Shown in pieces: positions 6,121-41,977 of a DNA stretch of 64,000 bases. The notes beneath the pieces are model-generated. The model searched no databases. It saw only the letters and a program-made list of their open reading frames with translations, and had not been told where the DNA came from. Made by a program: the position numbers and the translations under genes. The DNA is from an uncultured Rhodobacterales bacterium (GTDB lineage: Bacteria > Pseudomonadota > Alphaproteobacteria > Rhodobacterales > Rhodobacteraceae): NCBI GenBank assembly GCA_964645155.1, contig CAZYBG010000003.1:7093-71092 (forward strand), in the 5' to 3' direction. How positions within the stretch are numbered: position 1 is the first letter of the stretch; each line of letters starts with the position of its first letter.

Positions 6121-6145
6121 GGAACGATCTCGGCACCCGGACGTT
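6121..6145 (+). promoter_or_regulatory. EcfG-type promoter candidate (GGAAC-N16-CGTT) toward ctaG-like/HemJ-like genes
   Basis: GGAAC 6121-6125, 16-nt spacer, CGTT 6142-6145. Confidence 0.5.
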
Positions 6146-6147
6146 CC
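6123..6147 (-). promoter_or_regulatory. EcfG-type promoter candidate (GGAAC-N16-CGTT) on the opposite strand of the same palindrome
   Basis: The reverse complement of 6143-6147 is GGAAC and of 6123-6126 is CGTT. GGAACG (6121-6126) and CGTTCC (6142-6147) form an inverted repeat. Confidence 0.5.
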
Positions 6148-25946: not shown

Positions 25947-25971
25947 GGAACAATCCGCGGCGTTCCCGGTT
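25947..25971 (+). promoter_or_regulatory. EcfG-type promoter candidate (GGAAC-N16-GGTT) upstream of the stress trio
   Basis: GGAAC 25947-25951 and GGTT 25968-25971, about 53 nt before GTG 26024. Confidence 0.6.
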
Positions 25972-26023
25972 CGGTCGGTTCTCATGGCGCCCGGATCGGG
26001 CGCGCCAAAGGCAGGAGGACGCG

Positions 26024-26503: not shown

Positions 26504-26904
26504 CCGATCCCGAAATCCAGCCGGCCGGCCGCGGCATCGCAGACCTCCTCGGCGACGCCACGCAGCACCTGTCGACACTCGTCCGGAAGGAGTTCGACCT
26601 GCTGCGCGCCGAGATGTCGGAGAAGGCCGGGGAACTCTCCAGCTCTGCGATGATGCTGGGCGTCGGCGCCATCATGGCGCTGGTGGCGCTCAACGTCCTC
26701 GCGATCGCGGCGGTGATCGGCCTGACCGAAAGCGGCCTCGAGCCGGGCTGGGCGGCGCTGATCGTGGGCGGCGCGGTCGCGCTCCTGGCGGTCGTGCTGA
26801 TCGGCATCGGCATGTCGGGGCTGAAGGCGAAGAACCTGGTGCCAAGGCGCACCGCACGGTCGCTGGAAAAAGACGCGACCACCATCGGGAGAGCAGCACG
26901 ATGA
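26500..26904 (+). CDS. Holin-X / DUF1469-family membrane protein
   Basis: ATGA overlap. LSTLVRKEFDLLRAEMSEK followed by two TM helices. This is the typical partner of the flanking genes. Confidence 0.6.
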   Translation: MTDPEIQPAGRGIADLLGDATQHLSTLVRKEFDLLRAEMSEKAGELSSSAMMLGVGAIMALVALNVLAIAAVIGLTESGLEPGWAALIVGGAVALLAVVLIGIGMSGLKAKNLVPRRTARSLEKDATTIGRAAR

Positions 26905-27986
26905 CTGACGAACGCAGCAGCGCCGAGATCGAACGCGAGATCGAGGCCGAACGTGGCGCCCTGGCCGGAACGCTCCGCGACATCCGCGAGAGCGTTTCGG
27001 TGGAAGCGGCGGTCCAGCGGATCGCCGAGAGCCTGCGCAGCAACAGCGGCGAGATCGCCGGGGCGGTGGGCCGCCAGGTGCGGGCCAACCCGCTCGGCGT
27101 CGCGCTCACGGGCATCGGGCTCGCATGGCTGATGATGGGGCCTCACACCCCGGATGCCGGCCGCGGAATGTCGGCGTCGGGCCGGCGCTTTGACGATGAC
27201 GACGATGACGACTGGGCCGTCGGCCGCTCGGACGTGGCCGACCGGGGCGCCTACCGGCCTTCGCCCGGCCTTGGCTTCGAAGACAGCATGTATGCCGGCG
27301 AAGAGCTGGGCGGCATGGATGCCGGGGCCCGGGACGGCGACGAGGCCGACCAGGGCAACGGCAGCACCGGGGCCGGCTGGACCGGGTCGGGCGCCGGCAG
27401 CGCCGCCCGGCGTCTGCGCTCGCGCAGCGCCGATCTGCGCAGCCGCATGCAGCACGGTCTCGAGGACCTCTCGGGCGCGGCGCGCGAGCGGGTGCTCGCC
27501 GCGCGGCGGGCGGCCGTCCATGCCCGGCAGCGGGCCGAAAGCATCGCGCGCCGCGGCACCCGGCGGGCGGCCGGCTTCTACCACGAGGCGCCGCTGGTAT
27601 CGGGCGCGGTCGCGATGGCAGTCGGCGCGGCGGTCGGCGCGCTTCTGCCCCGGACGCGAACCGAGGACGACCTGATGGGCGCCGAGTCGGACCGGTTGAT
27701 GGACGAGGCCCGGCGCATCTACGACGAGGAGAAGTCGCGGCTGGCGGATGCGGGTCGGGCCGTCGTCGAGACCGGGCGCGAAGCCGCGGGCGAGATCGCC
27801 GACGCGGCCGGCAAGGCGCTGACATCGGCCGGCCAGCGGATGGACGATCGCGAGCCGGGGCAGACCGGCAGCGATGATGGAACAGATGGAAGCGGGATGG
27901 ACCGTCCGCCGCCGGACGAGCCCGATCGCGACCTGCCGGGCACGATGCCTCCGATGCGCGGACCTTCGGGGCGCAGCATCGGCTGA
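26901..27986 (+). CDS. DUF3618-domain protein
   Basis: ATGA overlap. N-terminus ERSSAEIEREIEAERGALAGTLRDI is characteristic of DUF3618. Acidic low-complexity centre and a TM segment. Confidence 0.6.
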   Translation: MTDERSSAEIEREIEAERGALAGTLRDIRESVSVEAAVQRIAESLRSNSGEIAGAVGRQVRANPLGVALTGIGLAWLMMGPHTPDAGRGMSASGRRFDDDDDDDWAVGRSDVADRGAYRPSPGLGFEDSMYAGEELGGMDAGARDGDEADQGNGSTGAGWTGSGAGSAARRLRSRSADLRSRMQHGLEDLSGAARERVLAARRAAVHARQRAESIARRGTRRAAGFYHEAPLVSGAVAMAVGAAVGALLPRTRTEDDLMGAESDRLMDEARRIYDEEKSRLADAGRAVVETGREAAGEIADAAGKALTSAGQRMDDREPGQTGSDDGTDGSGMDRPPPDEPDRDLPGTMPPMRGPSGRSIG

Positions 27987-28026
27987 CCGGCGCCCGGCGC
28001 AGGCACGGACGACGACGTGAAGCAAC

Positions 28027-28056
28027 GAACGCCTCCGGCCCCGGCCGGAGGCGTTC
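28027..28056. terminator. GC-rich hairpin between convergent genes (possible bidirectional terminator)
   Basis: gaacgcctccggcc / ggccggaggcgttc forms a perfect 14-nt inverted repeat centred at about 28041, followed by ttcttcc. Lies between the stops at 27986 (+) and 28081 (-). Confidence 0.45.
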
Positions 28057-28080
28057 TTCCGTCGAAGCAATGCCGCAGGG

Positions 28081-28482
28081 TCAGCGCTCCTCGGGCTCCA
28101 GTTCGGGTCCCAGCACGACCGCCTCGATCCGGTTGCCCTCGGGGTCGCGGACGAAGGCGGCATAGTAGTCGGACCCGTATTCGGGCCTGAGGCCGGGCGC
28201 CCCGTCATCGGCGCCCCCGGCGCCCAGCGCCGCGTCGTGGAACGCGCGGACCGCTGCCCGCGAAGGCGCGCGAAACGCATGGTGCGTCTGCGACGGCGCG
28301 TTGGGAACGTCGACGGCGCTGATCAGGGTGAAGTCGTCGCGGCCGTCGCGCTGGAAGCTCGCGGTGCGGCCATTGGCCTCGCCCGGCACGATCCCGAGCG
28401 GCCGGAACGCGGCCTCGTAGAAGCGCCGGGCGCGGTCGAGGTCCGTCACCGCGAGCGTCACATGGTCGATCATCGAAGTCAT
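28081..28482 (-). CDS. VOC/glyoxalase-family protein
   Basis: 133 aa. IDHVTLAVTDLDRARRFYEAAF is the typical glyoxalase/bleomycin-resistance fold N-terminus. Confidence 0.8.
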   Translation of the reverse strand: MTSMIDHVTLAVTDLDRARRFYEAAFRPLGIVPGEANGRTASFQRDGRDDFTLISAVDVPNAPSQTHHAFRAPSRAAVRAFHDAALGAGGADDGAPGLRPEYGSDYYAAFVRDPEGNRIEAVVLGPELEPEER

Positions 28483-28571
28483 GGCAGGGTTCCCTTCCTG
28501 GCGTCGGGCAGGGGCGCGCCCGGGCCCCTCTCTGCGGCCGTCGCGGGCTTGGTTCGATCCGGGCCTGTCTC

Positions 28572-28596
28572 AACCGGCGAGGCGGGCAGACGTTCC
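28572..28596 (-). promoter_or_regulatory. EcfG-type promoter candidate (GGAAC-N16-GGTT) toward the VOC gene
   Basis: Plus strand AACC 28572-28575 and GTTCC 28592-28596, about 90 nt upstream of ATG 28482. Confidence 0.55.
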
Positions 28597-28662
28597 CGAG
28601 CGGCCCTCGGCGCGCGGCCGGGCGCGACCCCGGCTTCCGCCCGGCGGGATGGGCCGCAAGGG

Positions 28663-28687
28663 GGAACATGTGCCGCCCTGCCCGGTT
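28663..28687 (+). promoter_or_regulatory. EcfG-type promoter candidate (GGAAC-N16-GGTT) toward Mn catalase
   Basis: GGAAC 28663-28667 and GGTT 28684-28687, 33 nt before ATG 28720. Confidence 0.6.
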
Positions 28688-28719
28688 GCAGGGCCTCCCG
28701 GCAAGACAGAGGAGCCGAC

Positions 28720-29556
28720 ATGTTCCACCATTCTTCGAAACTTCAGTACGAGGTGCGGGTCGACCGCCCGAACCCCGTCTTCGCCAAGTGCCTCCAGCAG
28801 GCCATCGGCGGGATCGAGGGCGAGATCCGCGTGGCCATGCAGTACTTCTTCCAGGCGATGGGCGCGCACGGCGACGCCCGGTACCGCGACATGCTGATGA
28901 TGACCGCGACCGAAGAACTGTCGCATATCGAGTTCCTCGGCCACGCCGTTGCACTGAACCTCGACGGTGCGCCGGTGTCGATGCAGGACGAGGCCGCGCA
29001 GGACCCCGTCGTTCATGCGATCCTCGGCGGCATGAACCCGCGGCATCTCCTGTCCGCCGGCCTCGCGGCGATGCCGGTCAACGCGAACGGGGTGCCGTTC
29101 GACATGAGCCATGTCTATGCCACCGGCAACATCGGTGCCGACATGCTGGCCAACGCCACCGCCGAGGCCGGTGGCCGCGTCCTCGCCAGCCGGCTCTACA
29201 ACATGACTGACGATGCCGGCATGAAGGACATGCTGTCGTTCCTGATCGCGCGCGACACGATGCACCAGCAGCAATGGCTCGCCGTGCTGGAGGAGCTGGG
29301 CGGTTGGCAGGCGCAGCTGCCGATCCCGAACGCGACGCCGCCCGAGCACGAGGCGACCGAGCACAGCTACTACTTCCTGAACACCTCGCTCGACGCGCCG
29401 ACGCCCGAGGGCCGCTGGACCTCGGGGCCGTCGCTCGACGGGCGGGCGGAGTTCTCGGTGCGCGAGCGGGTGGAACCGCTGGGGCAGCAGGCGAGCCTCG
29501 GCCACGCCCGGCCGCAATCCGGGGCGCAACGCGAGCAGATCGGAAAGGGAGCATGA
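28720..29556 (+). CDS. Manganese catalase family protein
   Basis: ATG 28720 with GAGGAG RBS. KLQYEVRVDRPNPVFAKCLQQAIGGIEGEIRVAMQYFFQA and EELSHIEFL motifs. Confidence 0.85.
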   Translation: MFHHSSKLQYEVRVDRPNPVFAKCLQQAIGGIEGEIRVAMQYFFQAMGAHGDARYRDMLMMTATEELSHIEFLGHAVALNLDGAPVSMQDEAAQDPVVHAILGGMNPRHLLSAGLAAMPVNANGVPFDMSHVYATGNIGADMLANATAEAGGRVLASRLYNMTDDAGMKDMLSFLIARDTMHQQQWLAVLEELGGWQAQLPIPNATPPEHEATEHSYYFLNTSLDAPTPEGRWTSGPSLDGRAEFSVRERVEPLGQQASLGHARPQSGAQREQIGKGA

Positions 29557-29783
29557 AGATGGACGAGATCGACCGCGAGGAGCATGTCCGCCGGCGCGCC
29601 TATCAACTCTGGGAGCAGGAGGGCCGGCCCGAAGGCCGCGACACCGCGCACTGGAGCCAGGCCGAGGCCGAACTCGAGGTCGCGCCGGTGCGCGGCGACG
29701 GTGTCGCCGGCGATGGCGCGGACAACTCTGGCACCCGCCCGTCGCGGGCGCCAGCGCGGAACGCGCGTCGGGCCGAAGCCTGA
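29553..29783 (+). CDS. DUF2934-domain protein
   Basis: ATGA overlap with the catalase gene. RRRAYQLWEQEGRPEGRDTAHWSQAEAEL is the DUF2934 signature. Confidence 0.7.
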   Translation: MKMDEIDREEHVRRRAYQLWEQEGRPEGRDTAHWSQAEAELEVAPVRGDGVAGDGADNSGTRPSRAPARNARRAEA

Positions 29784-29921
29784 AAGCGCCACCGCCTGCC
29801 CCGAAGCACATGCAGGCAGGGCAGGCGACCGGCCGTCGGGCGCAACCGGACCGCTGGCCCCCGGGACAATCCCGGGATCATCCGGTGGGCATGGCCGCGC
29901 CGCTGCGCCGGACGCGCGACC

Positions 29922-30917
29922 TCATTCGGCCGCGGTCGGCGCGGCGCGGTCCGGCGGCCCGTCGCGGTAGAGCGCGAACCAGGCCGCCGTTTCGGCCAGG
30001 CCACGGTCGAGCGGCACGAGGGGCTGCCAGCCGAGGCAGTGCCGCGCCCGCGAGATATCGGGCCGCCGGCGCCGGGGGTCGTCGGCCGGCAGCGGCCGGA
30101 ACAGGATTTCGGACCGTGTCGGGATCATGCGCTGCACCATCCGCGCCAGGTCGAGAACGGTCACCTCGACCGGGTTGCCGAGATTGACCGGTCCGGGCGG
30201 GCGCTCCTCCACCTCCATGAGGGCGAGGAGCCCGCGCACCAGGTCGGAAACATAGCAGAACGACCGCGTCTGCCGCCCGTCGCCGTAGACGGTGAGAGGC
30301 CGGCCATCCAGCGCCTGCACGATCAGGTTCGAGACGATGCGCCCGTCGTCCGGCCGCATCCTGGGCCCGTAGGTGTTGAAGATCCGCGCCACCCGGACAT
30401 CGACATTGCCGGCGCGCAGGTAGTCGAAGCACAGCGTCTCGGCCGCGCGCTTGCCTTCGTCGTAACAGGCCCGTGTCCCGATCGGGTTGACATGGCCCCA
30501 GTAGTCCTCTGCCTGCGGATGCTGCTCGGGGTCGCCGTAGACCTCGCTCGTCGAGGCCTGCACGTACCGTGCGCCGTGCCGCCCGGCGAGTTCCAGGAGC
30601 CGCCCGGTTCCCACCACGTTGGTCATCATCGTGCGGATCGGCTCGGCCTGATAGTGCGGCGGGGAGGCCGGCGAGGCGAGGTTGTAGAGAAAGTCGATCC
30701 GCTCGGCCGGAAGGGCGTCGGTCGCGACATCAGCGCGCCAGAGGCGGAAGTTCCGGTCGTTCCGGAGCGGCCCGACATTGGCGGGGCGGCCGGTCTGGAA
30801 GCTGTCGACGCAGATCACGCGATGGCCGCGGGCGAGGAGCGCATCGCACAGATGCGATCCGACAAAGCCCGCACCGCCCGCGACGAGGGCGGTCTTCGGG
30901 AAGGACGCGACATTCAT
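29922..30917 (-). CDS. uxs: UDP-glucuronate decarboxylase (UDP-xylose synthase)
   Basis: 331 aa. GGAGFVGSHLCD, STSEVYGDP, YDEGKRAAETL, ARIFNTYGPRM. Last gene of the operon. Confidence 0.85.
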   Translation of the reverse strand: MNVASFPKTALVAGGAGFVGSHLCDALLARGHRVICVDSFQTGRPANVGPLRNDRNFRLWRADVATDALPAERIDFLYNLASPASPPHYQAEPIRTMMTNVVGTGRLLELAGRHGARYVQASTSEVYGDPEQHPQAEDYWGHVNPIGTRACYDEGKRAAETLCFDYLRAGNVDVRVARIFNTYGPRMRPDDGRIVSNLIVQALDGRPLTVYGDGRQTRSFCYVSDLVRGLLALMEVEERPPGPVNLGNPVEVTVLDLARMVQRMIPTRSEILFRPLPADDPRRRRPDISRARHCLGWQPLVPLDRGLAETAAWFALYRDGPPDRAAPTAAE

Positions 30918-31996
30918 GGTGTGACCTCCGTTGCAGTCGGGATACGGGCGAGCGCCACCGCAAGCTCCTCGGCACGCGCCGGTCCGGTATGTCGCGACAG
31001 AACGATGGCGCGCGCGCGGGCCGCCATGCGCCGGCGCTCCGCCTCGGGCATCGCAAGTGCGGCGACGACGTCGTCGCCGCTGTCGGCGATGGCGATCGCC
31101 TCGCCTTCCGGAAAGAGGTCAGCAAGTCCGTTCCAACGGTCCGACAGGACGGGCGTTCCGCAGGCTGCGGCCTCGAACAGCCGGACCGACGGCGCGTGCC
31201 CCGACCGGCGCATCGCCGCACGGGTCAGGTTCAGCGTGAAGCGCTGTCGGCCGTAGAAGGCGGCATGCTCGGCCGGCGGCAGATGCTCGATCCGCTCGAC
31301 ATTCGGCGGCCAGGCGATGCCTTCGGGATATTGCGCGCCGGCGACGACGAAGCGCGCCTGCGGCATCCGGCGCGCCGGATCGAGGAGCAGCGCCTCGAGC
31401 CCCGGCTGCCGGTCGGCACTGTAGGTGCCGAGGTAACCCAGATCCCACGACGGCACGAGCCCCTCCGGCCGGTAGAGATCGGGATCGACCGCGCAGAAGA
31501 GCGCCTCGGCGCGCCGCGCGCCGAGGCGCTCCAGCGTCTTCAGCGCGGCCCCGCCGGCGAACGAGAGGTAGAGGTCGAACGCGGCAAGCTGCCGCGGCAG
31601 GAGGTGGCTCGAGCCGCCGGCCGCGAGCTGTTCGAGCGTCACCGGCGTGTCGATGTCGTAGAACACCAGCCGCGCCGGGCGCTCCCGGATCAGCAGGTCG
31701 ATCAGCGCCGCGCCCTCGGGCACGCAGGAGCCGACGATCACCGCGTCGGCCCGCCGCAGCCGGGGGCGGAAAGCGGCGAGCCCGCCCAAATCGTCGTAGA
31801 GCGCGAAGTCGCAGAAGTCCGGCCGCGGCAGGTCGCGGTGCGCGGCGTACCAGGGCTGGTCGCGCTCCAGGAACAGCACCCGGTGGCCCCCGGCGGCGAG
31901 GCCGCGCAGCAGCGCGCGCCAGGTCGTGGCATGGCCATTGCCCCACGACGACGAGAGCGACAGGCCGAAGACCACGATGTCGAGCGGGCGAGTCAT
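30914..31996 (-). CDS. CgeB-family (Glyco_trans_1_2 / DUF3880-like) glycosyltransferase, paralog A
   Basis: ATGA overlaps at both ends. FGLSLSSSWGNGHATTWRALLRGLAAGGH and VRLFEAAACGTPVLSD. Confidence 0.65.
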   Translation of the reverse strand: MTRPLDIVVFGLSLSSSWGNGHATTWRALLRGLAAGGHRVLFLERDQPWYAAHRDLPRPDFCDFALYDDLGGLAAFRPRLRRADAVIVGSCVPEGAALIDLLIRERPARLVFYDIDTPVTLEQLAAGGSSHLLPRQLAAFDLYLSFAGGAALKTLERLGARRAEALFCAVDPDLYRPEGLVPSWDLGYLGTYSADRQPGLEALLLDPARRMPQARFVVAGAQYPEGIAWPPNVERIEHLPPAEHAAFYGRQRFTLNLTRAAMRRSGHAPSVRLFEAAACGTPVLSDRWNGLADLFPEGEAIAIADSGDDVVAALAMPEAERRRMAARARAIVLSRHTGPARAEELAVALARIPTATEVTP

Positions 31997-33072
31997 GCGG
32001 TCTCCCTCCGGGCAAGTATGCCGAGGCGCTCGACGACCTGTTCGGCGCGGTGGGCATAGGTGTGCTGGGCGAGCACCCGGGCGCGGGCCGCGGCGCCGAT
32101 CCGCGCCGCCGCCTCGGCCGACAGGCCGGCGAGGATCTCGGCGACGTCCCGACCGTCGCGCGCGACGAGGATCTCGGCGCCCGGCTCGAGAAAGAGCGGG
32201 ATCCCCTCCCAGGCGTCGGTGATCAGGCAGGCGCCGGCGCCCGCGGCCTCGAACACCCGGGTCGCGGGCGAGAAGCCGACCTCGGCCATGCTGTCGCGCG
32301 CCACGTTCAGGACCGCGCGGGGCGTGCAGTTGAAGGCGTTGTGGTCGGCCGTGCCGACATGGCCGAGCGCCAAGACATTGGCCGGCAGGCCCTCGCCCCA
32401 GCCGGACCCGCCGAGAAGGAACCGGTCGGCGGGCCTGAGGCGGGCCGGGCGGAGGAAGAACTCGGCCGCCCGCGCCTCGCGGTCCGGCAGCCGGTTCGCG
32501 AGGAACCCCAGATCGGCGGCGAACCGTGGGTTCGGGGCAACCGGGTGATGGGTGTCGGGGTCGAGCGCGTTGTAGACCGGGACGCAGTCGCGCGCGCCCA
32601 GGGCGCGGTAGCCGAGGACCACCGGCGCGCCGCCGCCATAGGTCAGGATCAGATCGAAGGCGGGAAGCTGCTGCCGGAGCGGATGCGCCGAATCGGCGCG
32701 CATCGCGGCCAGCGTCGCCGGCGCGTCGACATCCCACCAGAGCCGGAGCGCGTCGGGACGCGCCTGCGCCAGCACCGCCTCGCGCAGCCGGTCGTCCTCG
32801 AACCCGATGCCGGAGGCCACGACGACGGCGTCGGCGGCCCCGGCGCAGGCCGCGGCCGAGGCAAGACCGGCCGACGTGCCGGGCCAGACGTTGACGCGGC
32901 ACCAGTCGGGCATCGCGATGTCGCGGTGCTGCCGACGCTCCCACACGTCGGGCTCGTGGAAGGTGATCTCGAAGCCGCGCGCCGCGAGGGCCCGGAGCAG
33001 GCCGCGGTAGTAGGTGGCGGCGCCGTTCCAGTACGAGGACAGCAGGCTCGAGCCGTAGAACGCGAGCTTCAT
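31993..33072 (-). CDS. CgeB-family glycosyltransferase, paralog B
   Basis: YGSSLLSSYWNGAATYYRGLLRALAARG and TRVFEAAGAGACLITD. ATGA overlaps at both ends. Confidence 0.65.
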   Translation of the reverse strand: MKLAFYGSSLLSSYWNGAATYYRGLLRALAARGFEITFHEPDVWERRQHRDIAMPDWCRVNVWPGTSAGLASAAACAGAADAVVVASGIGFEDDRLREAVLAQARPDALRLWWDVDAPATLAAMRADSAHPLRQQLPAFDLILTYGGGAPVVLGYRALGARDCVPVYNALDPDTHHPVAPNPRFAADLGFLANRLPDREARAAEFFLRPARLRPADRFLLGGSGWGEGLPANVLALGHVGTADHNAFNCTPRAVLNVARDSMAEVGFSPATRVFEAAGAGACLITDAWEGIPLFLEPGAEILVARDGRDVAEILAGLSAEAAARIGAAARARVLAQHTYAHRAEQVVERLGILARRETA

Positions 33073-34178
33073 TCGGCGGCCTCCCGCACGCCGGCCCCGA
33101 GCAGGCGCAGGAGCCCGAGAAGCTGTTCGGCCCGGTGCCGGCAGGTATGGCGCGCGGCGATCGTCGCGAGACCGTTCGCGGCGAGCTCTCCGGCGAGCGA
33201 CGGGTCGCCGAGCACGGCCGCAAGATGGCGCTCCATCGCGGCGCCGTCGCGGGCGATCAGGAAGTCCTTCTCAGGCCGGAACAGGCCCTCGACGTCGTCC
33301 CACGGCGCCGAGACCAGCGGTATCCCGCAGGCCAGCGCCTCGAAGACGCGGATCGTGGGGATGCCGGGCAGCGCCTCCACATAGGGCTGCCGCGGCACGT
33401 GGACGGTGACGCGGTGGCGGGCAAATACCTCTGGCACGCAGGCATTGGCGACCCAGCCGCGATAGGCGATCCCGGCCCGGGCCAGCCGCTGCCGCACCGC
33501 ATCGGGGTAGCGCACGCCGCACACCTCGGCGGCGAGACCGAGCCGGGCGACCGGGCCGGTCAGGTAGTCCTCCAGTTCCCGCGCCCGTTCGCCGTCGCCC
33601 CAGTTGCCGATCCAGACGAGATCGCCCTTGCGCGCGATGTCGGGGCGCGGGCGGAACAGCGTGTCGTCGGCCGCCTCGTGCCAGGTGAAGACCTGCCGGC
33701 CCCAGCCGGCGGCAAGGTAGCGCTCGCGCAGCGCCTCGCCGAACGCCAGCACGGCGTCATAGCCCGAAAGGTCGAGCCCGGCGATCTCGCGGTCGGCCGA
33801 GACGGCACGATGATGGGTGTCGTGGAAGAGCAGGCGGAACCGCGCGCCCCGCGCCCGGCAGCGGCCGAGCCGGCGGACGATCGCCGGATCGGTCCATTCG
33901 TGGACGACGACGACATCGGCCCCGGTGACGCGGTCGGCCACGTCTTCGGCGCCGTGGTGGAGTTCGGTCCGCAGGTCGGGAAACGCCCGGCCGAAGGCGA
34001 CGAGCGCCGCGGCGCCGGCCTCGGCGATGAGGTTCCCGCGCGACCACGATGCGGCGGGTTCGATCGCGCGGCAGGTATGCCCCAGCGCCTGCAGCGCCCG
34101 CATGACGCCACGCTGGAAATGCGCGTTGCCGTGGTTCCAGTCAGAGACCAGCGAATGGGTGAGAAAGACGAACTGCAT
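33069..34178 (-). CDS. CgeB-family glycosyltransferase, paralog C
   Basis: LTHSLVSDWNHGNAHFQRGVMRALQALGH and IRVFEALACGIPLVSA. ATGA overlap downstream. Confidence 0.65.
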   Translation of the reverse strand: MQFVFLTHSLVSDWNHGNAHFQRGVMRALQALGHTCRAIEPAASWSRGNLIAEAGAAALVAFGRAFPDLRTELHHGAEDVADRVTGADVVVVHEWTDPAIVRRLGRCRARGARFRLLFHDTHHRAVSADREIAGLDLSGYDAVLAFGEALRERYLAAGWGRQVFTWHEAADDTLFRPRPDIARKGDLVWIGNWGDGERARELEDYLTGPVARLGLAAEVCGVRYPDAVRQRLARAGIAYRGWVANACVPEVFARHRVTVHVPRQPYVEALPGIPTIRVFEALACGIPLVSAPWDDVEGLFRPEKDFLIARDGAAMERHLAAVLGDPSLAGELAANGLATIAARHTCRHRAEQLLGLLRLLGAGVREAAE

Positions 34179-34181
34179 CGG

Positions 34182-35258
34182 CTATTCCGCCGCCTGCCGG
34201 ACGGTGAGCCGCCGGTAGAGGGCCAGCATGTCGTCGGCCTGCCGCTCGGGCGCGAACCGAAGTGCCCGCGCCTGCGCCGCGGCGCCGCGGCGCGCCCGCT
34301 CCTCGGGGTCGTCGGCAAGCCGGTCGAGAAGCGCGGCGAGCGCCACGGGATCGCGCGGGTCGAAGAAGGCCGCCGCCCCCTCCCACAGCTCGCGATAGGT
34401 CGGGATGTCGCTCAGCACCAGCGGGCGGCCGAGCCGCGCAGCCTCGAGGGCGGCAAGGCCGAAGGGCTCGTAGAGCGAGGGCGACACAAAGATCGCGGCC
34501 TCGCGCATGGCGGCGATCGCCGCGGCGTGCGGAACCGGCCCGAGAGCGCGTGCGGGGGCGGGGTGCAGGCGCTGGCCGTCATACGCTTCGGTGGCGCCCA
34601 CGAGAGTGACCGGCACGCGGGAGAGCCGCGCCGCGGCGACGAGGACCGCGCCGTTCTTGCCGCGGTCCCACCACCGGCCGCAGGCGATGGCGCCGCGGCC
34701 GCCGCCGGGAGCGCCCGTCTCCACCCGGCTCGTGTTCGCGACCGCCGCCACGTCGGCAAGGCCGTAGACCTCGGCGGTCTCGCGGGCGTGGGCGCGGCTC
34801 GGCGCCACCACCGCGGCCGCCCGCGCCAGGCCGCGGCGCGCCAGGGCCTCGTGCCAGGCGAAGCCGGCCGGTGCCGGCCGGCCCTCGACCGCACGGAACC
34901 AGGTCCCGAGGCACGAATGGCAGACCGCCACGATCGGCTTGCCGATCGCCAGGTCGGCCGCCTGCGTCGGCAGGTTGACCTGGACGAGATCGGGGCGGTG
35001 CATCCTGACGAGCAGCGCCAGCCAGCGTCCGACGCCGGCAAGATCGCCCGGACGGCGCGCGCGCCAGTCCAGCGGCAGATCGCCCCAGACCAGCATCCCG
35101 GCGGCCGCGGCCTCGGCGACCTGGGCGCCCGACGGGCGGGGGCCGAGGCCGGCGAAGACGATCCGGCAGCCACGATCGGCCAGTGCCCCGCCGAGATCTA
35201 TCGCGTAGCGCCAGATCCCACCGACCGCATCGACGGTCATCAGCACCGCCGTGCTCAT
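34182..35258 (-). CDS. Glycosyltransferase family 4
   Basis: ATG 35258 in an ATGA overlap with the upstream gene. GGIWRYAIDLGGAL and LYEPFGLAALEAARLGRPLVLSD. Confidence 0.75.
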   Translation of the reverse strand: MSTAVLMTVDAVGGIWRYAIDLGGALADRGCRIVFAGLGPRPSGAQVAEAAAAGMLVWGDLPLDWRARRPGDLAGVGRWLALLVRMHRPDLVQVNLPTQAADLAIGKPIVAVCHSCLGTWFRAVEGRPAPAGFAWHEALARRGLARAAAVVAPSRAHARETAEVYGLADVAAVANTSRVETGAPGGGRGAIACGRWWDRGKNGAVLVAAARLSRVPVTLVGATEAYDGQRLHPAPARALGPVPHAAAIAAMREAAIFVSPSLYEPFGLAALEAARLGRPLVLSDIPTYRELWEGAAAFFDPRDPVALAALLDRLADDPEERARRGAAAQARALRFAPERQADDMLALYRRLTVRQAAE

Positions 35259-37240
35259 GCGCTCACCCTCTCCGCCGCAACCGGCAGCCGATGTTCTGCG
35301 AGCCAGCCGGCCAGGCGCCGCAGCCCCGGCCGCCAGCCGACACGCGGCGCCCAGCCCGTTGCGGCGCGGAGTGCCGCCGTGTCGGCCACGAACCACGCCT
35401 GGTCGCCCGGCCGCCAGTCGGCCTGGCGCACCTCCATCGGGCCGCCGGTGATGCGGCCGATCTCGTCGATCACATGGCGCAGGCTGACCGCGTTCGCCGG
35501 CCCGCCGCCGAGGTTGAAGGCACGGCCCCCGACGGCGGCGAAGCGCGCCATGGCGAGGCGGTAGGCGGCGACCGCGTCGGACACCTCGCACACGTCGCGG
35601 ACCTGGCGGCCGGTGCCGTAGACGGTGATCGGCCGCCCCGCAAGGGCCGCGATCAGGAAATGCGCCACCCAGCCCTGGTCCTCGGTGCCGAACTGGCGCG
35701 GCCCGTAGATGCACGACATCCGCAGCACCGCCGCCGGCAGCCCATAGCTCTTGGCGTAGTCGAGCACGTACTGGTCGGCGACCCCCTTCGAACAGCCATA
35801 GGGCGTGCAGAAGGCAAGCGGCGCACGCTCGTCGATGCCCATCGCCAGCGCGGGGTCGGTCGGGGCGCAGGCGGCCTCGGTCTCGACGATCGCCAGATCG
35901 GAGAGGTCGCCGTAGACCTTGTTGGTGGATGCGAAGATCAGCGGGATCTCCCGCCCGCTGGCGCGGACCGCCTCGAGAAGGTTCAGCGTGCCGCGCGCGT
36001 TCACCTCGAAATCCTCGACCGGCGCCGCGAGGCTCGTCGTCACCGCGGTCTGGGCGGCGAGGTGATAGATCTCGCCGGCGTTCCGCACCGCCGCGGCAAG
36101 CGCCCGATCGTCCCGCAGGTCGGCGAGAACCGGGTGCACGCGGCGCGGGTGCCGCGCTGTCAGCCAGGCGAGGTTCTCCTCCACCCCCGGGCGCGACAGG
36201 TTGTCGAGCACGACGACGTCGCGCGCATCGGCCGCAAGGCTGTCGACGAGGTTCGAGCCGACGAAACCCGCCCCGCCGGTGACCACCACCGGCCGGGCCG
36301 CCGGGCCGAGCGCCGGGGCGGCGAGGCCCGCGACCTCGCGCAGCCGGTCGAGGCCGCCGTCGCAGAGCATCCTCGCCAGCAGTTTCGGCTGGTTGTCGGA
36401 CGTGACCGCACCGAGGTGATAATGGCGCGGATCGAACCAGAGCCCGTCCTGCGTCGCTACGTCGGGAGCGAGGTCGCGCCAGCCGTACCAGTAGAGCCGG
36501 TCGGCGGGCGCCGCGAGCGCGCTCACGAACCGGCGCGCCTGTTCGACCTGATCGTTGCGCCAGGTGGAATAGCCGGCCTCGGTGATCCAGATCTGCGCGG
36601 CCGGGTTGTGCCGGTCGAGCACCGCGCGCATCTCGCCCAGGTGCAGGTCCCAGCCCGACCAGTGGCCGGCCTCGCTTTCCCAGGTGCCGGGAAAGCCGTG
36701 GAACCCCACCGCATGCATCAGCGCCAGAAGCCCGCGCCGGCCCATGAGATCGAGCCAGAGCGGATCGAACGGGCACGGACCGCCCAGCACGGGCTTCCAG
36801 CCGCGATGCCGCGCCCAGTGCGCCGCCATCCCGATCATCTCGCAGAACAGGTCGAAATCGGGGTCGGCCCGCCAGTCCCAGTCGAGCAGGTTGTTGGGCT
36901 CGTTCCAGAGCTCGACATGCTCGAAATGGTCACCGTGGCGGGTCAGCACCAGGTCGATGAAGTCGGCGAAGTCCTGAAGCCGCTCGGGCGGGCCGGAGCT
37001 GCGCCCGGTGCGCGACAGCGAGGGCGGCGTGTAGTGGATGCAGGGCATCAGCTCGATCTCGGCGGCAAGGCGCGGGATCAGCCAGTCGAACCACTCCCGC
37101 CCGCCGGGAGCGTGGTATTCTGCCCACGAAAGATGCGTGCGCAGCCACGCGGCGCCCGAACCGGTCAGGCCCGGCATCACCGCCTCCACATGCGCGCGGT
37201 CGCCGGGGCGGAACCACTCGACAAAGCCGAAGGCGGTCAC
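35255..37240 (-). CDS. Fusion: clan GH-A-like TIM-barrel glycosidase domain + CDP-paratose/tyvelose 2-epimerase-like SDR domain
   Basis: GTG 37240 in a GTGA overlap. N-terminal half has ELWNEPN (acid/base-like) and IWITEAGYS (nucleophile-like). C-terminal half has VTGGAGFVGSNL, DNLSRPG, STNKVYGDL, PYGCSKGVADQY, DQGW, GRQVRDV. Confidence 0.7.
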   Translation of the reverse strand: MTAFGFVEWFRPGDRAHVEAVMPGLTGSGAAWLRTHLSWAEYHAPGGREWFDWLIPRLAAEIELMPCIHYTPPSLSRTGRSSGPPERLQDFADFIDLVLTRHGDHFEHVELWNEPNNLLDWDWRADPDFDLFCEMIGMAAHWARHRGWKPVLGGPCPFDPLWLDLMGRRGLLALMHAVGFHGFPGTWESEAGHWSGWDLHLGEMRAVLDRHNPAAQIWITEAGYSTWRNDQVEQARRFVSALAAPADRLYWYGWRDLAPDVATQDGLWFDPRHYHLGAVTSDNQPKLLARMLCDGGLDRLREVAGLAAPALGPAARPVVVTGGAGFVGSNLVDSLAADARDVVVLDNLSRPGVEENLAWLTARHPRRVHPVLADLRDDRALAAAVRNAGEIYHLAAQTAVTTSLAAPVEDFEVNARGTLNLLEAVRASGREIPLIFASTNKVYGDLSDLAIVETEAACAPTDPALAMGIDERAPLAFCTPYGCSKGVADQYVLDYAKSYGLPAAVLRMSCIYGPRQFGTEDQGWVAHFLIAALAGRPITVYGTGRQVRDVCEVSDAVAAYRLAMARFAAVGGRAFNLGGGPANAVSLRHVIDEIGRITGGPMEVRQADWRPGDQAWFVADTAALRAATGWAPRVGWRPGLRRLAGWLAEHRLPVAAERVSA

Positions 37241-38343
37241 GACACGAGCCCCCGCGCTTCCAGTTCGCGCCGCATCGCTGCGCCGCGGTCGGTGCCGGGC
37301 GCGCCGCGCACCCAGTCGGCGAAATCTGCCAGCGCGTGCTCGAGCGGATGTTCGGGCACGAAGCCGAGCAGCGTCTCCGCGCGGCCGATATCGGCAAAGC
37401 AGTTGCGGATGTCGCCGGCACGGAACCGGCCGAGAATCTCGGGCTCGATCCCGGGCCTGCCCATCGCGCCGGCCAGAAGTTCGGCGACCTGGCGGATCGA
37501 GTAGGCGCGCCCCGAGCCGACATTGATCGCCTCGCCCGCCACGCCGTCGCGTTCGAGCGCGAGGCGGAAGGCGCGCGCCACGTCGCGGACATGCACGAAG
37601 TCGCGCCGCTGCCGGCCGTCCTCGAAGATCGTCGGGCGCGCCCCGGCCCCGATCCGCGCGGCGAAGTTGGCCAGCACGCCGGTATAGGGGTTAGAAAGCG
37701 CCTGCCCGGCCCCGAAGACGTTGAAGAGCCTGAGCGCGACCGCCGGAATGTCGTAGGCCGCGCCGAAGATCAGCACCGCCCTTTCCTGGGCGTACTTGGT
37801 CAGCGCGTAGATCGAGGCGAGGTCCGGGCGCTTGGCTTCGTCGGTGGGCAGCGGCGTCAGCGCCGCGCCGTCGGGACCGACCGGGTCCCAGCGTCCGCCG
37901 CGCAGGTCCCGCACGGACCGGCGCGCGCCGGCGAACAGCGCGCCGCCGGGCAGCGCGTAGCGGCCCTCGCCGTAGATGCTCATCGAGGAGGCAACCACGA
38001 TCCGGTCCACCGGATGCTCGGCGATGGCCTCGAGCAGCACCGCCGTCCCGAGGTCGTTCGCGCCGACATAGCGGGCGATCTCGTACATCGACTGGCCGAC
38101 ACCGACCTCGGCGGCGAGGTGGATCACCGCGTCGCATCCGCGCAGCGCGTCCCCGAGGCGGCCGGCGTCGCGGACATCGCCGCGGACGACCTCGGCGCCG
38201 TCCGGAACTTCCGGCGCATTGCCGCCATGGACCTGGTCGATCATCGCGTCGTAGAGGCGCACCTCGTGCCCTGCGGCAAGCAGTTCGGCGGCGACGTGGC
38301 GGCCGATGAAGCCGCAGCCGCCGGTGATCAGGACATGGGACAT
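37237..38343 (-). CDS. NAD-dependent epimerase/dehydratase (SDR)
   Basis: 368 aa. ITGGCGFIGRH, HLAAEVGVGQS, ALTKYAQE (YxxxK). First gene of the operon. Confidence 0.8.
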   Translation of the reverse strand: MSHVLITGGCGFIGRHVAAELLAAGHEVRLYDAMIDQVHGGNAPEVPDGAEVVRGDVRDAGRLGDALRGCDAVIHLAAEVGVGQSMYEIARYVGANDLGTAVLLEAIAEHPVDRIVVASSMSIYGEGRYALPGGALFAGARRSVRDLRGGRWDPVGPDGAALTPLPTDEAKRPDLASIYALTKYAQERAVLIFGAAYDIPAVALRLFNVFGAGQALSNPYTGVLANFAARIGAGARPTIFEDGRQRRDFVHVRDVARAFRLALERDGVAGEAINVGSGRAYSIRQVAELLAGAMGRPGIEPEILGRFRAGDIRNCFADIGRAETLLGFVPEHPLEHALADFADWVRGAPGTDRGAAMRRELEARGLVS

Positions 38344-38379
38344 GGGCGGGGCTCCTCGACGCGTTTCGCGAGGTTCCGG

Positions 38380-38404
38380 AACCGGAGGTGGTCGGGTTTG
38401 TTCC
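38380..38404 (-). promoter_or_regulatory. EcfG-type promoter candidate (GGAAC-N16-GGTT) toward the SDR..CgeBx3..uxs operon
   Basis: Plus strand AACC 38380-38383 and GTTCC 38400-38404. The -10 lies 37 nt upstream of ATG 38343 and overlaps the 12-bp palindrome GGTTCCGGAACC (38372-38383). Confidence 0.55.
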
Positions 38405-38601
38405 CGGCTTTCCAGCGACTTCGGCGGAAGCGGGGGCGGAAGCGGGCCGGTTCTTCAACTTCATCAATGACTTCCGTGGAGACCGCCGGCAGCCGGTCGG
38501 GCGCCGCCGGCGGCACGGCAGCCGCGACCGGGAACAAAGCGCCGGCAGCGCCGGTTCGCCCCCCGCGCCGCGTCCCGGCGCGACCAACCCCGGGGGCTGC
38601 A

Positions 38602-39585
38602 ATGGATGGTGGACGGATCGGCGCGCGGCTCGAGGCGGCCCAGGTCACCGGGCCCGGCCGGGTCGCGGTCGTGGAACTGCCGCTGCCGGAGCCGGGCCCC
38701 GACGAGGTGCGGGTGCGGATCGAGGGCTGCGGCGTCTGCGCCTCGAACCTCGGCCCCTGGTCCGGCCCGCCATGGATGAGCTTTCCGCTGCCGCCGGGTG
38801 CGCTCGGCCACGAGGCCTGGGGGCGGATCGACGCGGTCGGCGCAGCGGTGAGCCCGGCGCGCCGGGGCGAGCGCGTGGCGATCCTCGGCTTCCACGGCTA
38901 TGCAAGCCACGACATCGTTCCGGCCGACGCGGCGCTGCCGCTGCCCGCCGCGCTCGAGGGGCAGGCCGTGCCGGCCGAGGCGATCGGCTGCGCGATGATG
39001 ATCTTCGGCCGGACCCGCATCCAGCCCGGCGAAATCGTTGCCATAGTCGGCATCGGCTTTCTCGGGGCGCTCCTGACGCGGCTCGCCGCCGCCGCGGGTG
39101 CGCGGGTCATCGCGCTCTCGCGGCGCGCCAGCAGCCTCGCCCTCGCCCGCCGCTGCGGTGCGTCCGAGACGATCGAGATGGCCGACCACGGCGCGATCCT
39201 CGCCCGTCTTGCCGAGCGGACCGGCGGCCGCGCCTGCGATGTCGCAATCGAGTGCACCGGGCACCAGTGGCCCCTCGACCTCGCGGCCGAAGCCCTGCGG
39301 GAAGGCGGGCGGCTGGTGATCGCGGGCTACCACCAGGACGGCCCGCGGCAGGTCAACATGCAGCTCTGGAACTGGCGCGCCCTCGATATCGTCAACGCCC
39401 ATGAGCGCGACCGCGGCAAGCTGCTGGCGGCGATGCGCGACGGGATCGCCGCCGTCGCCGACGGGCGGCTCGAACTCGCACCGCTGCTGACGCACCGCTA
39501 TTCGCTCGGCCGCCTCGCAGCCGCGCTCGACGCCACGCGCGACAAGCCCGAAGGTTTCGTCAAGGCGCTGGTGGTGCTGCGATGA
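38602..39585 (+). CDS. Zinc-type medium-chain alcohol dehydrogenase (MDR family)
   Basis: ATG 38602. GCGVCASNL, GHEAWGRI, Rossmann motif VGIGFLG. Confidence 0.75.
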   Translation: MDGGRIGARLEAAQVTGPGRVAVVELPLPEPGPDEVRVRIEGCGVCASNLGPWSGPPWMSFPLPPGALGHEAWGRIDAVGAAVSPARRGERVAILGFHGYASHDIVPADAALPLPAALEGQAVPAEAIGCAMMIFGRTRIQPGEIVAIVGIGFLGALLTRLAAAAGARVIALSRRASSLALARRCGASETIEMADHGAILARLAERTGGRACDVAIECTGHQWPLDLAAEALREGGRLVIAGYHQDGPRQVNMQLWNWRALDIVNAHERDRGKLLAAMRDGIAAVADGRLELAPLLTHRYSLGRLAAALDATRDKPEGFVKALVVLR

Positions 39586-40664
39586 CCCGGCCCGCGATGG
39601 CCCGGCCGCGCGTCGGCTTCCTCGGTCTCGGCTGGATCGGGCGGCACCGGTTCGAGGCGCTGGCCGGCACCGGCGCGATCGACGTCGTCGCCCTTGCCGA
39701 TACCGCGCCCGAGGCGGTCGCGGCCTGCGCCGGCGCCTGCCCCGGCGCCCGGCTCGGATCGACGCTCGACGATGTCCTCGCCGCACGCCCGGAAGGCGTG
39801 GTGATCGCGACCCCGTCGGCGCTGCATGCGGCGCAGGCCGTCGCGGCGCTCGAGGCCGGGGCGGCGGTGTTCTGCCAGAAGCCGCTCGGCCGGAACGCGG
39901 CCGAGACGCGGGCGGCCGTCGCTGCGGCGCGCCGGGCCGACCGGCTGCTTGCCGCCGACCTCTCCTACCGCCACACCGCCGGCATGGTGGCGATCCGGCA
40001 GGCGGTGGAGGGTGGCCGCATCGGCCGCCCGCTGGCGCTCGACCTGACGTTTCACAACGCCTACGGGCCGGACAAGCCCTGGTTCCACGACCGCGCGCTT
40101 TCGGGTGGCGGATGCGTGATCGACCTCGGCGTGCATCTGGTCGACCTCGCGCTGTGGCTGACCGGATGGCCCGGCCTGCGCTGCACCTCGGCGCAGCTCT
40201 TCTCCGGCGGGGCGAGGCTCTCCGTCGGCGACCCGGCGGTCGAGGACTTCGCGATGGCCACGCTCGAGACCACGGCAGGCGGTGTCGTCCGCATCGCCTG
40301 TTCGTGGAACCTGTCCGCCGGCTGCGATGCGGTGATCCGCGCCGAGATCCATGGCGACCGCGGCGGCGCCGTCCTCGCCAATGTCGGCGGCTCGTTCTAC
40401 GATTTCGAGGCCCATCTCCTCCACGGCCGCGAGCGGCAACTGCTGGCGGTTCCGCCGGACGACTGGGGCGGCCGCGCAGCGGTGGCCTGGCTGGAGCAAC
40501 TCGCCAATGGCGCCGGCTTCGACCCGGCCTGCGAGGGCCTCGTCACGCTCGCCGAGGCTCTGGACGCAATCTACGGTCACTCGCCCGGCGCGGCGGTGTC
40601 GGCGCCGCGCGGTGCGGCGGCCTCCCTCGGCGCCCGCAGGAAGGCGGCAGGGCCCTTGCGGTAG
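39582..40664 (+). CDS. Gfo/Idh/MocA-family oxidoreductase
   Basis: ATGA overlap. VGFLGLGWIGRHR N-terminal Rossmann motif and FCQKPL block. Confidence 0.8.
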   Translation: MTRPAMARPRVGFLGLGWIGRHRFEALAGTGAIDVVALADTAPEAVAACAGACPGARLGSTLDDVLAARPEGVVIATPSALHAAQAVAALEAGAAVFCQKPLGRNAAETRAAVAAARRADRLLAADLSYRHTAGMVAIRQAVEGGRIGRPLALDLTFHNAYGPDKPWFHDRALSGGGCVIDLGVHLVDLALWLTGWPGLRCTSAQLFSGGARLSVGDPAVEDFAMATLETTAGGVVRIACSWNLSAGCDAVIRAEIHGDRGGAVLANVGGSFYDFEAHLLHGRERQLLAVPPDDWGGRAAVAWLEQLANGAGFDPACEGLVTLAEALDAIYGHSPGAAVSAPRGAAASLGARRKAAGPLR

Positions 40665-40721
40665 CGAAACGCGCCGGGGCCGCAATCGCGCGCCCCGGCA
40701 CTGCAGTATCAGGCGGCGGTC

Positions 40722-41225
40722 TCAGGCGGCCATCCGGTTCAGCCGCTCCTCGGCGACGCGCGAAAGCTTGGCGTCGGCCGCCTTCTCCTCCTCCAGCGTC
40801 TGCTTCAGAAGCTCGGCGCAATCGGTCCGGCCGAGTTCCTGCGACCAGGCGATCAGGGTTCCGTAGCGGGTGATCTCGTAGTGCTCGACCGCCTGCGCGG
40901 ACGCGGCGATGGCGGCATCGAGGACGCTCGAATCCTCGACCTCGCTGGCGATCTCCTCGGCTTCCTTGATGATGCCGTCGATCGCCGGGCAGTTGGTTCC
41001 GCCGGCTTCCTCACCCAGCAGCGCGAACACCTGCTCCAGCCGCTCGACCTGCCGCTCGGTCTCGTGCAGGTGCGCCTGCAGTCCGTCGCGCAGCGCCCCT
41101 TCCGAGGCCTTGTCGATCATCTTCGGCAGGGCGTTCACGATCTGCTTCTCGGCGTAGTAGATGTCGCGAAGCTGGTGCATGTAGAGGTCGTCCATCGACT
41201 GGATGTCATAGGAAAAAAGCGCCAT
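40722..41225 (-). CDS. DUF892 (YciE/YciF-like) ferritin-like stress protein
   Basis: 167 aa. LYMHQLRDIYYAEKQIVNALPKM and AVEHYEITRYGTLIAW are signature blocks. Confidence 0.85.
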   Translation of the reverse strand: MALFSYDIQSMDDLYMHQLRDIYYAEKQIVNALPKMIDKASEGALRDGLQAHLHETERQVERLEQVFALLGEEAGGTNCPAIDGIIKEAEEIASEVEDSSVLDAAIAASAQAVEHYEITRYGTLIAWSQELGRTDCAELLKQTLEEEKAADAKLSRVAEERLNRMAA

Positions 41226-41324
41226 TCATGGCCTCCTGACTTCGGGTTGCGTCGTTCATGGGGCGGGGTCGATCGCCAGCTCGGTGACCACTGCCAACCG
41301 TCTGTCGCCCCTCAGGGCAGGGGC

Positions 41325-41349
41325 AACCGCAGCGCCCGCCGATTGTTCC
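41325..41349 (-). promoter_or_regulatory. EcfG-type promoter candidate (GGAAC-N16-GGTT) toward the DUF892 gene
   Basis: Plus strand AACC 41325-41328 and GTTCC 41345-41349, about 100 nt upstream of ATG 41225. Confidence 0.55.
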
Positions 41350-41389
41350 CCGATCGGCGGCCCGGCCACGGCCCGGTCCGATGGCACAG

Positions 41390-41875
41390 TCAGATCGCCC
41401 GGTCGCCGAGTTCCGCCATCACCATCGCGCGGGCGCGGTTCACGCGGCTCTTGATCGTGCCGACCTCGCAGCCGCAGATGCGGGCCGCCGTCTCGTAGCT
41501 TTCGCCCATCATCACGACCAGGACGAGCGTCTCGCGGTAGTGGTTCGGCAGGCGCTGAACCACCCTCATCAGCTCGCCGCCGCGCACCACCCACTCCTGG
41601 GTCGAGGCGCTCGATGCCGTGCCCGACACGCAGTCCTCCGAACCGGTGCGCTCGCGCTTGGTCTTGGCCAGCGTGTTGAAGAACGAATTGCGCATGATCG
41701 TGAATAGCCACGCCCGCAGCCGCGTGCCCGGGGTGAAGCTGTCGATGTTCGCCAGCGCCCGCACCAGCGTGTCCTGGACAAGATCATCGGCATCGGGGCG
41801 GTTGCGGCACAGGACATAGGCATAGGCCCTGAGCGCCGGCAGGAGCGCCACGACATCGGCCCGGACATCCGGCAT
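41390..41875 (-). CDS. ecfG: ECF sigma factor, EcfG/RpoE2-type (general stress response)
   Basis: ATG 41875. LPALRAYAYVLCRNRPDADDLVQDTLVRALANIDSFTPGTRLRAWLFTIMRN and ICGCEVGTIKSRVNRAR closely follow the S. meliloti RpoE2 pattern as I recall it. Confidence 0.8.
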   Translation of the reverse strand: MPDVRADVVALLPALRAYAYVLCRNRPDADDLVQDTLVRALANIDSFTPGTRLRAWLFTIMRNSFFNTLAKTKRERTGSEDCVSGTASSASTQEWVVRGGELMRVVQRLPNHYRETLVLVVMMGESYETAARICGCEVGTIKSRVNRARAMVMAELGDRAI

Positions 41876-41951
41876 GTTCCTTGCTGCTTCGACCACGTGT
41901 TGCGAACCCGTCGACAGAGACGATACCCCCGAGCGGGGGCGTTGCGCGCAT

Positions 41952-41977
41952 AACGCCGTTGTCGCGACAGCAGTTCC
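41952..41977 (-). promoter_or_regulatory. EcfG-type promoter candidate (GGAAC-N17-CGTT), autoregulatory position upstream of ecfG
   Basis: Plus strand AACG 41952-41955 and GTTCC 41973-41977. Lies between the NepR-like ORF stop (42019) and the ecfG ATG (41875). Confidence 0.6.

Follow-up and report, generated by a model that had tools for sequence, protein, structure and literature searches.

A predicted EcfG-type promoter in front of a conserved seven-gene glycan operon in an uncultured Rhodobacterales bacterium

Promoters read by the EcfG (ECF15) sigma factors of the general stress response are well known, and their published consensus is GAAC-N16,17-C/GGTT (PMC4814048). Here we consider a site of this type in a stretch of 64,000 nucleotides (the window, G000:C3:7093-71092) from the genome of an uncultured Rhodobacterales bacterium (3.65 Mb, 71% G+C, 249 contigs). 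The site lies on the minus strand (GGAAC, 38404-38400; GGTT, 38383-38380) and precedes a seven-gene operon that probably builds a glycan. It is very probably a functional EcfG-type promoter of this operon, from which we infer that the operon is induced by stress in the host.

The closest described counterpart is found on the S. meliloti megaplasmid pSymB, where SMb20238-SMb20245 and the divergent SMb20246/47 form the orthologous cluster, as judged by gene order, source names and matching coordinates. The RpoE2 dependence of the orthologous operon is already contained in supplementary tables; the SMb2024x locus tags are named in no main text of the literature searched. Upon overexpression of RpoE2, SMb20238-45 were up by log2 0.78-1.62 and SMb20246/47 by ~2.5 (Lang et al. 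2018, PMC6180224 Data Set S1). Signal log ratios from a second study were 2.23 for SMb20245, 3.85 for SMb20243, 3.89 for SMb20242, 3.24 for SMb20241, 2.47 for SMb20239 and 5.82 for SMb20246, and of the two mRNA start sites listed for SMb20245 one was assigned to an RpoE2 promoter (Schlueter et al. 2013, PMC3616915 Table S18). The S. meliloti operon promoter is GGAACATTTGCGACGCAGGTTTGTT, a GGAAC-N16-TGTT motif ~45 nt before the ATG, and a second, divergent motif lies ~116 bp away.

In the window, the operon side of the intergenic spacer contains the following elements.

38400-38404, minus strand: -35 box GGAAC of the operon promoter, read from the sequence (extended form GGGAACAAA)
38380-38383, minus strand: -10 box GGTT of the operon promoter, 16 nt from the -35 box (extended form CCGGTTCCGG)
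38371-38375, minus strand: predicted transcription start, 5-9 nt past the -10 box, placed according to the usual geometry of ECF (extracytoplasmic function) promoters
38352-38357, minus strand: strong Shine-Dalgarno sequence GAGGAG, 8 nt before the ATG at 38343, read from the sequence

On the plus strand the letters are gttcc at 38400-38404 and aacc at 38380-38383, which read GGAAC and GGTT on the minus strand, and 16 nt lie between them (38384-38399). The site agrees with the EcfG (ECF15) type in its GGAAC with the core GAAC, its 16-nt spacer and its (C/G)GTT. GGTT is not a weak variant, because the published consensus allows C/GGTT (PMC4814048). A first-pass annotation, made from the letters of the window, had named both boxes, their spacer and their coordinates, all of which we confirm from the sequence. 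It had also located the ATG correctly (cat on the plus strand at 38341-38343) and had put the promoter 37 nt before it; the gap that we measure from the -10 box to the ATG is 36 nt. The site is intergenic and on the strand of the gene, and its 36 nt compare with a genome-wide median of 40 nt for such sites. A scan of 29400-38750 for sigma-70-like promoters found none, and a scan of the spacer (38250-38700) against Rfam gave zero matches.

Motifs of this kind are clearly enriched in the host genome. When only intergenic sites with a start codon on the same strand no more than 150 nt away are counted as promoter-like, there are 16 for GGAAC-N16-GGTT and 9 for N17, against 0-4 (mean ~1.4) for spacers of 10-15 and 18-24 nt. 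CGTT is as enriched as GGTT (GGAAC-Nx-CGTT has 15 promoter-like sites at N16 and 13 at N17), and GGAAC-N16-TGTT has 10 versus 0-2 at other spacers. The enrichment is restricted to spacers of 16 and 17 nt, and none of 29 permuted letter orders of GGAAC gave more than three promoter-like sites (median 0). Within the window, the genes behind the same motif type include those for a Mn catalase (28720-29556), a DUF892 protein (40722-41225) and a glyoxalase-fold protein, which are typical stress genes.

The regulators expected for such promoters are encoded in this genome. A PhyR-NepR-EcfG locus spans C25:26656-28283 (C25:24890-28283 with the putative kinase gene), and a second EcfG-like sigma factor is encoded in the window itself.

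C25:26656-27231: EcfG (ecfG1), adjoining nepR
C25:27228-27386: NepR (PF18557, 56.6 bits)
C25:27474-28283: PhyR sigma-like domain (92.7 bits), phyR being divergent
41390-41875 of the window, minus strand: EcfG-like sigma paralogue, 45% identical to the EcfG of the phyR locus and without an adjacent NepR

A gene of 589 aa beside EcfG may encode the sensor kinase, judged by its position. The nepR/phyR spacer carries EcfG-type motifs, and the nepR promoter (GGAACCGAACTCACTGGAGGTGCGTT, 36 nt before nepR) overlaps a divergent motif that faces phyR. The gene of the sigma factor in the window is 3 kb from the operon and has a site of its own, GGAAC-N17-CGTT at 41952-41977, 76 nt upstream of the gene.

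Conservation was assessed by scanning the 300 nt upstream of each orthologue of the first gene, on the strand of the gene, for GGAAC-N16/17-[CGT]GTT. The motif is present in 24 of the 43 alphaproteobacterial loci and in none of the 37 loci of other phyla, and control spacers of 13-15 and 18-20 nt yielded 0-2 matches. About 30 of the 43 alphaproteobacterial loci have it if AGTT, as in the Mesorhizobium group, is also allowed. Among the orthologues from the same family, eight of nine have the forward motif and all nine have the reverse-strand motif for the divergent gene. The intergenic spacers cannot be aligned between genera, yet the boxes are kept, with the extended form GGAACA(A)...nGTTC(G/C/A)G; GGAACA(A) is the most frequent form of the -35 box among the orthologous promoters. 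The closest relative with the cluster (genome G045, first protein 73% identical) has the site GGAACATATGACCCATCCCGAGGTT, 35 nt before the start, and the orthologous cluster on R. etli p42b carries GGAAC-N16-GGTTCGG.

Two divergent genes adjoin the operon on the other side of the spacer, and the plus strand contains two motifs that could serve them.

38602-39585, plus strand: MDR protein, Zn-dehydrogenase-like, divergent, part of the same conserved cluster
39582-40664, plus strand: Gfo/Idh/MocA oxidoreductase, divergent, part of the same conserved cluster
38531-38556, plus strand: GGAAC-N17-GGTT (GGAACAAAGCGCCGGCAGCGCCGGTT), likely promoter of the MDR/Gfo genes, 45 nt before the ATG at 38602
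38378-38402, plus strand: mirror reading GGAAC-N16-TGTT of the operon promoter (GGAAC 38378-38382, TGTT 38399-38402), 199 nt before the MDR ATG

The first-pass annotation had given the weaker mirror motif to the MDR/Gfo genes. The motif is exact, but it is 199 nt from the ATG and the better site at 38531-38556 had been missed, so we do not follow this assignment. The -35 boxes of the operon promoter and of the 38531-38556 promoter stand back to back, ~127 bp apart; the corresponding distance is 128 bp in G045 and ~116 bp in S. meliloti, and R. etli is comparable. G045 has the equivalent divergent site GGAACAATTCATGCCCGGGCCGGTT, 39 nt before its MDR gene. The operon element as a whole is an inverted repeat, GGAAC-N17-GTTCC, and the mirror reading is automatic, because any GGAAC-N16-nGTTCC site forms this repeat. 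The same form occurs at the operon promoter of three other genomes of the family (G142, G080 and G092) and elsewhere in the host genome at window positions 6121-6147 and in two other places. We also considered whether GGAAC-N17-GTTCC is over-represented; it is not clearly so, the 4-5 cases among ~45 N16 sites being near the number predicted from composition and the preference for GTTC.

The -10 box of the operon promoter is embedded in a palindrome.

38372-38383: perfect 12-bp palindrome GGTTCCGGAACC, one half of which is the -10 box plus CC (GGTTCC)

The first-pass annotation had described this palindrome, and the sequence bears it out; its dyad symmetry spans the -10 to about +1, the predicted start. 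Its further proposal of an additional operator is not upheld, since the palindrome is not conserved (only G045 has it, imperfectly), does not recur as a regulon in the genome and has no regulator gene nearby. Intergenic DNA contains 0.83 perfect 12-bp palindromes per kb, so that ~0.2 are expected in a spacer of 258 bp; the palindrome is not more than chance. This particular word has two copies in the genome, the other one being in coding sequence. It is missing from all 45 orthologous promoters outside the family (the 43 loci plus R. etli and S. meliloti) and from eight of the nine within it. The exception, G045, has an 11/12 copy, in which GGTTCAGGAACC is kept and followed by T(C/T)GCG(A/G)A, with the central base alone changed. 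A duplication of GGTTCAGG(C) shifts this palindrome-like block 9 nt downstream of the -10 box of G045. In the G045 promoter (L100 17700-17741), the 9-nt duplication, GGTTCAGGC followed by GGTTCAGGAACC, parts the -10 box from the palindrome-like block, and it offers a natural test case for a separate role of this block. No regulator gene was found among the annotated neighbours in or beside the cluster. Most simply, the palindrome is the -10 box (GGTTCC) plus a mirror half that is due to chance or specific to the lineage.

The promoter-like sites in the host genome take two forms, GGAACC..GCGTT and GGAACA-N14-CGGTT, the latter being that of the operon. An A follows GGAAC in 11 of 18 GGTT-N16 sites versus 3 of 32 CGTT sites (Fisher p=2e-4), a C precedes GGTT in 16 of the 18, and a G precedes CGTT in 24 of the 32. 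Within 20 kb of ecfG1 there are eight CGTT and no GGTT sites (cluster span G000:C25:18576-31198). Within 20 kb of the sigma gene in the window there are six GGTT sites and one CGTT site (window 25947-41977), the latter being the promoter of this sigma gene itself. The segregation of the two flavours by sigma locus has p=0.0014, with all flavour statistics computed after the pattern was noticed. Exact GGAACAN14CGGTT occurs 13 times in the host genome versus 0 for the reversed control, and most genomes of the family have no excess of it. Among the sampled genomes of the family, the three whose orthologues of the in-window sigma are the closest (59, 53 and 52% identity) show clusters of such motifs around that gene; for GGAACA..C(G/T)GTT this was seen in G043, G044 and G045. 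In G045 the glycan cluster is ~2 kb from the orthologous sigma gene, whose own promoter is again of the CGTT type.

We consider the reading of the operon site as an EcfG-type promoter strongly supported, because the host has PhyR-NepR-EcfG, the motif is enriched, its conservation is confined to Alphaproteobacteria and the S. meliloti orthologue responds to RpoE2. The same evidence upholds the proposal of the first-pass annotation that this promoter places the glycan operon under predicted general-stress control. Several observations weigh against it. About one in ten promoter-like GGAAC-N16-GGTT matches is expected by chance, and about a quarter of the alphaproteobacterial orthologues have no clear motif (some of the motif-less loci have MDR/Gfo upstream in the same direction). 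Part of the induction in S. meliloti could be indirect, given that rpoE5 and rpoH2 are induced by RpoE2 as well (PMC6180224). The R. etli p42b cluster is missing from the genes that are at least 2-fold down in ecfG mutants (Jans et al. 2013 Table S4, PMC3892343), which is weak negative evidence. The R. etli result, and the background of ~1.4 promoter-like sites per spacer class, would be compatible with a chance match and transcription of the operon from another, for example housekeeping, promoter. This is very unlikely, as no sigma-70-like site was found in 29400-38750, the boxes have been retained in different orders despite divergence of the spacers, and both RpoE2 dependence and an assigned start site are on record for the S. 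meliloti orthologue. If the EcfG-type site is accepted, it might still fire in both directions, giving a long-leader MDR/Gfo transcript beside that from the proximal promoter at 38531-38556. An exact plus-strand motif of an enriched class (10 promoter-like sites versus 0-2), the recurrence of the inverted repeat in three other genomes and three further places in the host, and the similarly overlapping divergent phyR/nepR promoters are in favour of a truly bidirectional promoter. We nevertheless judge it unlikely, given that any nGTTCC -10 yields the mirror reading, that CC follows GTT at the predicted frequency, that the MDR ATG has a well-placed promoter 45 nt away while the mirror motif is at 199 nt, and that the divergent promoter of G045, R. 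etli and S. meliloti is a separate, upstream one.

Two further readings would leave the EcfG-type promoter in place and add a regulatory layer to it. The palindrome could be the operator of a dimeric regulator, covering the -10/+1 region, so that the stress promoter would receive a second input, a repressive one. The perfect dyad symmetry would suit this, and the reading is kept alive by the single case of G045, where GGTTCAGGAACC and T(C/T)GCG are preserved as a separate unit 9 nt past the -10. It is quite improbable in view of the absence of the palindrome from the 45 promoters outside the family and eight of the nine within it, the lack of a visible regulon or of a regulator gene in or beside the cluster, and the ~0.2 such palindromes expected per spacer of this size; moreover, the -10 box and the preference for a GTTC(N)GG context already account for one half. 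The other reading is a cascade, in which the EcfG of ecfG1 would activate the in-window sigma through its CGTT-type promoter and this second sigma, in place of the canonical one, would read the GGAACA-N14-CGGTT promoters, including that of the operon. It is possible, if doubtful. The two flavours with their different use of A after GGAAC, their segregation between the sigma loci, the 13 exact motifs versus none in the reversed control and the clustering around orthologous sigma genes in three family genomes argue for it. Against it stand the post hoc statistics and the mixed flavours of the orthologous operon promoters (GCGTT in G391, TCGTT in G077, TGTT in S. meliloti). Overexpression of RpoE5 in S. 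meliloti altered one gene only, whereas RpoE2 induced the cluster (PMC6180224), and the EcfG paralogues of M. extorquens are reported to recognise similar promoters (PMC4814048). A horizontally acquired island with the promoter flavour of its donor would also cluster alike. Only tentatively do we propose that the genome has two general-stress islands, with a separate EcfG paralogue and promoter flavour for each; the operon promoter would be second-tier and read preferentially by the in-window paralogue.

On the preferred reading, that of an EcfG-type promoter of the operon, stress would cause phosphorylated PhyR to capture NepR, which would free the EcfG sigma. RNA polymerase with EcfG would recognise GGAAC (38404-38400) and GGTT (38383-38380) and start at about 38371-38375. 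The mRNA would have a leader of ~30 nt with GAGGAG and would cover seven translationally coupled genes, the last being the UXS-like gene at 29922. With the second EcfG-type promoter (38531-38556, plus strand) driving the divergent MDR/Gfo genes, the two promoters would switch on the whole ~11-kb cluster together. The acting EcfG paralogue, the position of the start site and the stress induction in the host are predicted here.

Genes were called with our own simple caller based on codon statistics and checked against Pfam and NCBIfam. The operon consists of the following genes.

29922-38343, minus strand: seven-gene operon, 8422 bp, genes joined by 4-nt overlaps or tiny gaps
37237-38343, minus strand: SDR epimerase, first gene
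35255-37240, minus strand: GH-like::SDR fusion of 661 aa, C-terminal half an SDR epimerase
34182-35258, minus strand: GT4 glycosyltransferase
33069-34178, 31993-33072 and 30914-31996, minus strand: three CgeB-like Glyco_trans_1_2 genes
29922-30917, minus strand: UXS-like SDR, last gene

The extent of the operon and its UXS-like last gene agree with the 8.4-kb operon ending with uxs of the first-pass annotation. None of the cluster enzymes reached a curated cut-off in the NCBIfam scan, so specific enzyme names or a product cannot be assigned. The best NCBIfam scores of the MDR and Gfo proteins, below the cut-off, are to models of inosose and inositol dehydrogenase. In S. meliloti a neighbour (SMb20248-SMb20249) of the orthologous MDR/Gfo pair is annotated as myo-inositol-1-phosphate synthase and is RpoE2-induced (log2 2.24). 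These observations hint at an inositol-linked product. Since the motif precedes orthologues in several alphaproteobacterial orders, the distribution suggests that the product may be a sugar compound that protects against stresses such as desiccation or osmotic stress. The third CgeB-like gene contains a further match, GGAAC-N16-CGTT at 31135-31159 on the minus strand, 217 nt upstream of the UXS-like ATG. This may be a promoter within the operon or a product of chance; 29 of the 47 N16 CGTT matches in the genome are not promoter-like. The S. meliloti entry for SMb20239 lists one internal sense start site.

The gene order of the operon is repeated on R. etli p42b, S. meliloti pSymB and in many other loci. 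MDR/Gfo adjoin the operon in most alphaproteobacterial loci and are located within it in some Chloroflexi. The cluster (29922-40664) is patchy in the family, where 9 of 400 other genera carry it. It is found on ~150 plasmid records (Sinorhizobium, Rhizobium, Roseomonas, Paracoccus and Azospirillum) and is frequent on rhizobial plasmids. Many other phyla also have it, there without the EcfG motif. The patchy distribution suggests that the cluster is mobile.

Between the two divergent promoters the spacer contains another conserved element.

38451-38475: A/T-rich GAAG/GATGAAG-repeat element (minus strand GGAAGTCATTGATGAAGTTGAAGAA)

The element is near-identical in G045 and recognisable in the orthologous spacers of Rhizobium, Neorhizobium, Sinorhizobium and Paracoccus, and it often abuts a -35 box, in either orientation. 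A small upstream open reading frame was considered and rejected: a start codon is missing, the frame is not constant with respect to GGAAC or the gene, some species have stops, and the sequence past the repeat is not conserved. The element may be a binding site for a factor, and as a candidate for a second input it is conserved more widely than the palindrome. The spacer between both promoters also holds a perfect 12-bp tandem duplication, GGCGGAAGCGGG twice, at 38423-38446.

What emerges is a link between a widespread glycan-building cluster and the general stress response of Alphaproteobacteria, with the motif upstream of orthologues in several orders. We regard it as a useful annotation, not as a discovery, that indicates under which conditions and in which mutants the cluster genes are expected to be switched on. 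For a specialist, novelty might lie solely in the two flavours and their association with two EcfG paralogues. If true, this would amount to a cascade of EcfG-family sigma factors that can be distinguished by their promoter selectivity.

Hierarchies of EcfG paralogues have been described before, for instance that of SigT and, downstream of it, SigU in C. crescentus. To our knowledge, promoter flavours specific to one paralogue are established neither for that system nor for those of S. meliloti, Sphingopyxis and R. etli. The window is like these hierarchies (S. meliloti RpoE2 to rpoE5, PMC6180224; Sphingopyxis EcfG1/EcfG2; R. etli EcfG1/EcfG2) in that it has a second EcfG-like sigma with an EcfG-type promoter of its own. 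It is unlike them in that two flavours segregate with two sigma loci, which is a correlation only. With the canonical EcfG/ECF15 promoters, for example those of the divergent nepR-ecfG and phyR, the site shares GGAAC, a spacer of 16-17 nt and (C/G)GTT. The canonical promoters have the GGAACC..GCGTT flavour and serve regulator genes, whereas the window site is GGAACA..CGGTT and serves biosynthetic genes. The S. meliloti cluster SMb20238-47 has a -10 of TGTT instead of GGTT, no palindrome, a second gene without the N-terminal glycosidase-like domain and a methyltransferase gene after the operon, and it resides on a megaplasmid. Its genes stand in the same order as those of the window, with divergent MDR and Gfo genes, then SDR, tyv-like SDR, GT4, three CgeB-like and UXS-like genes.

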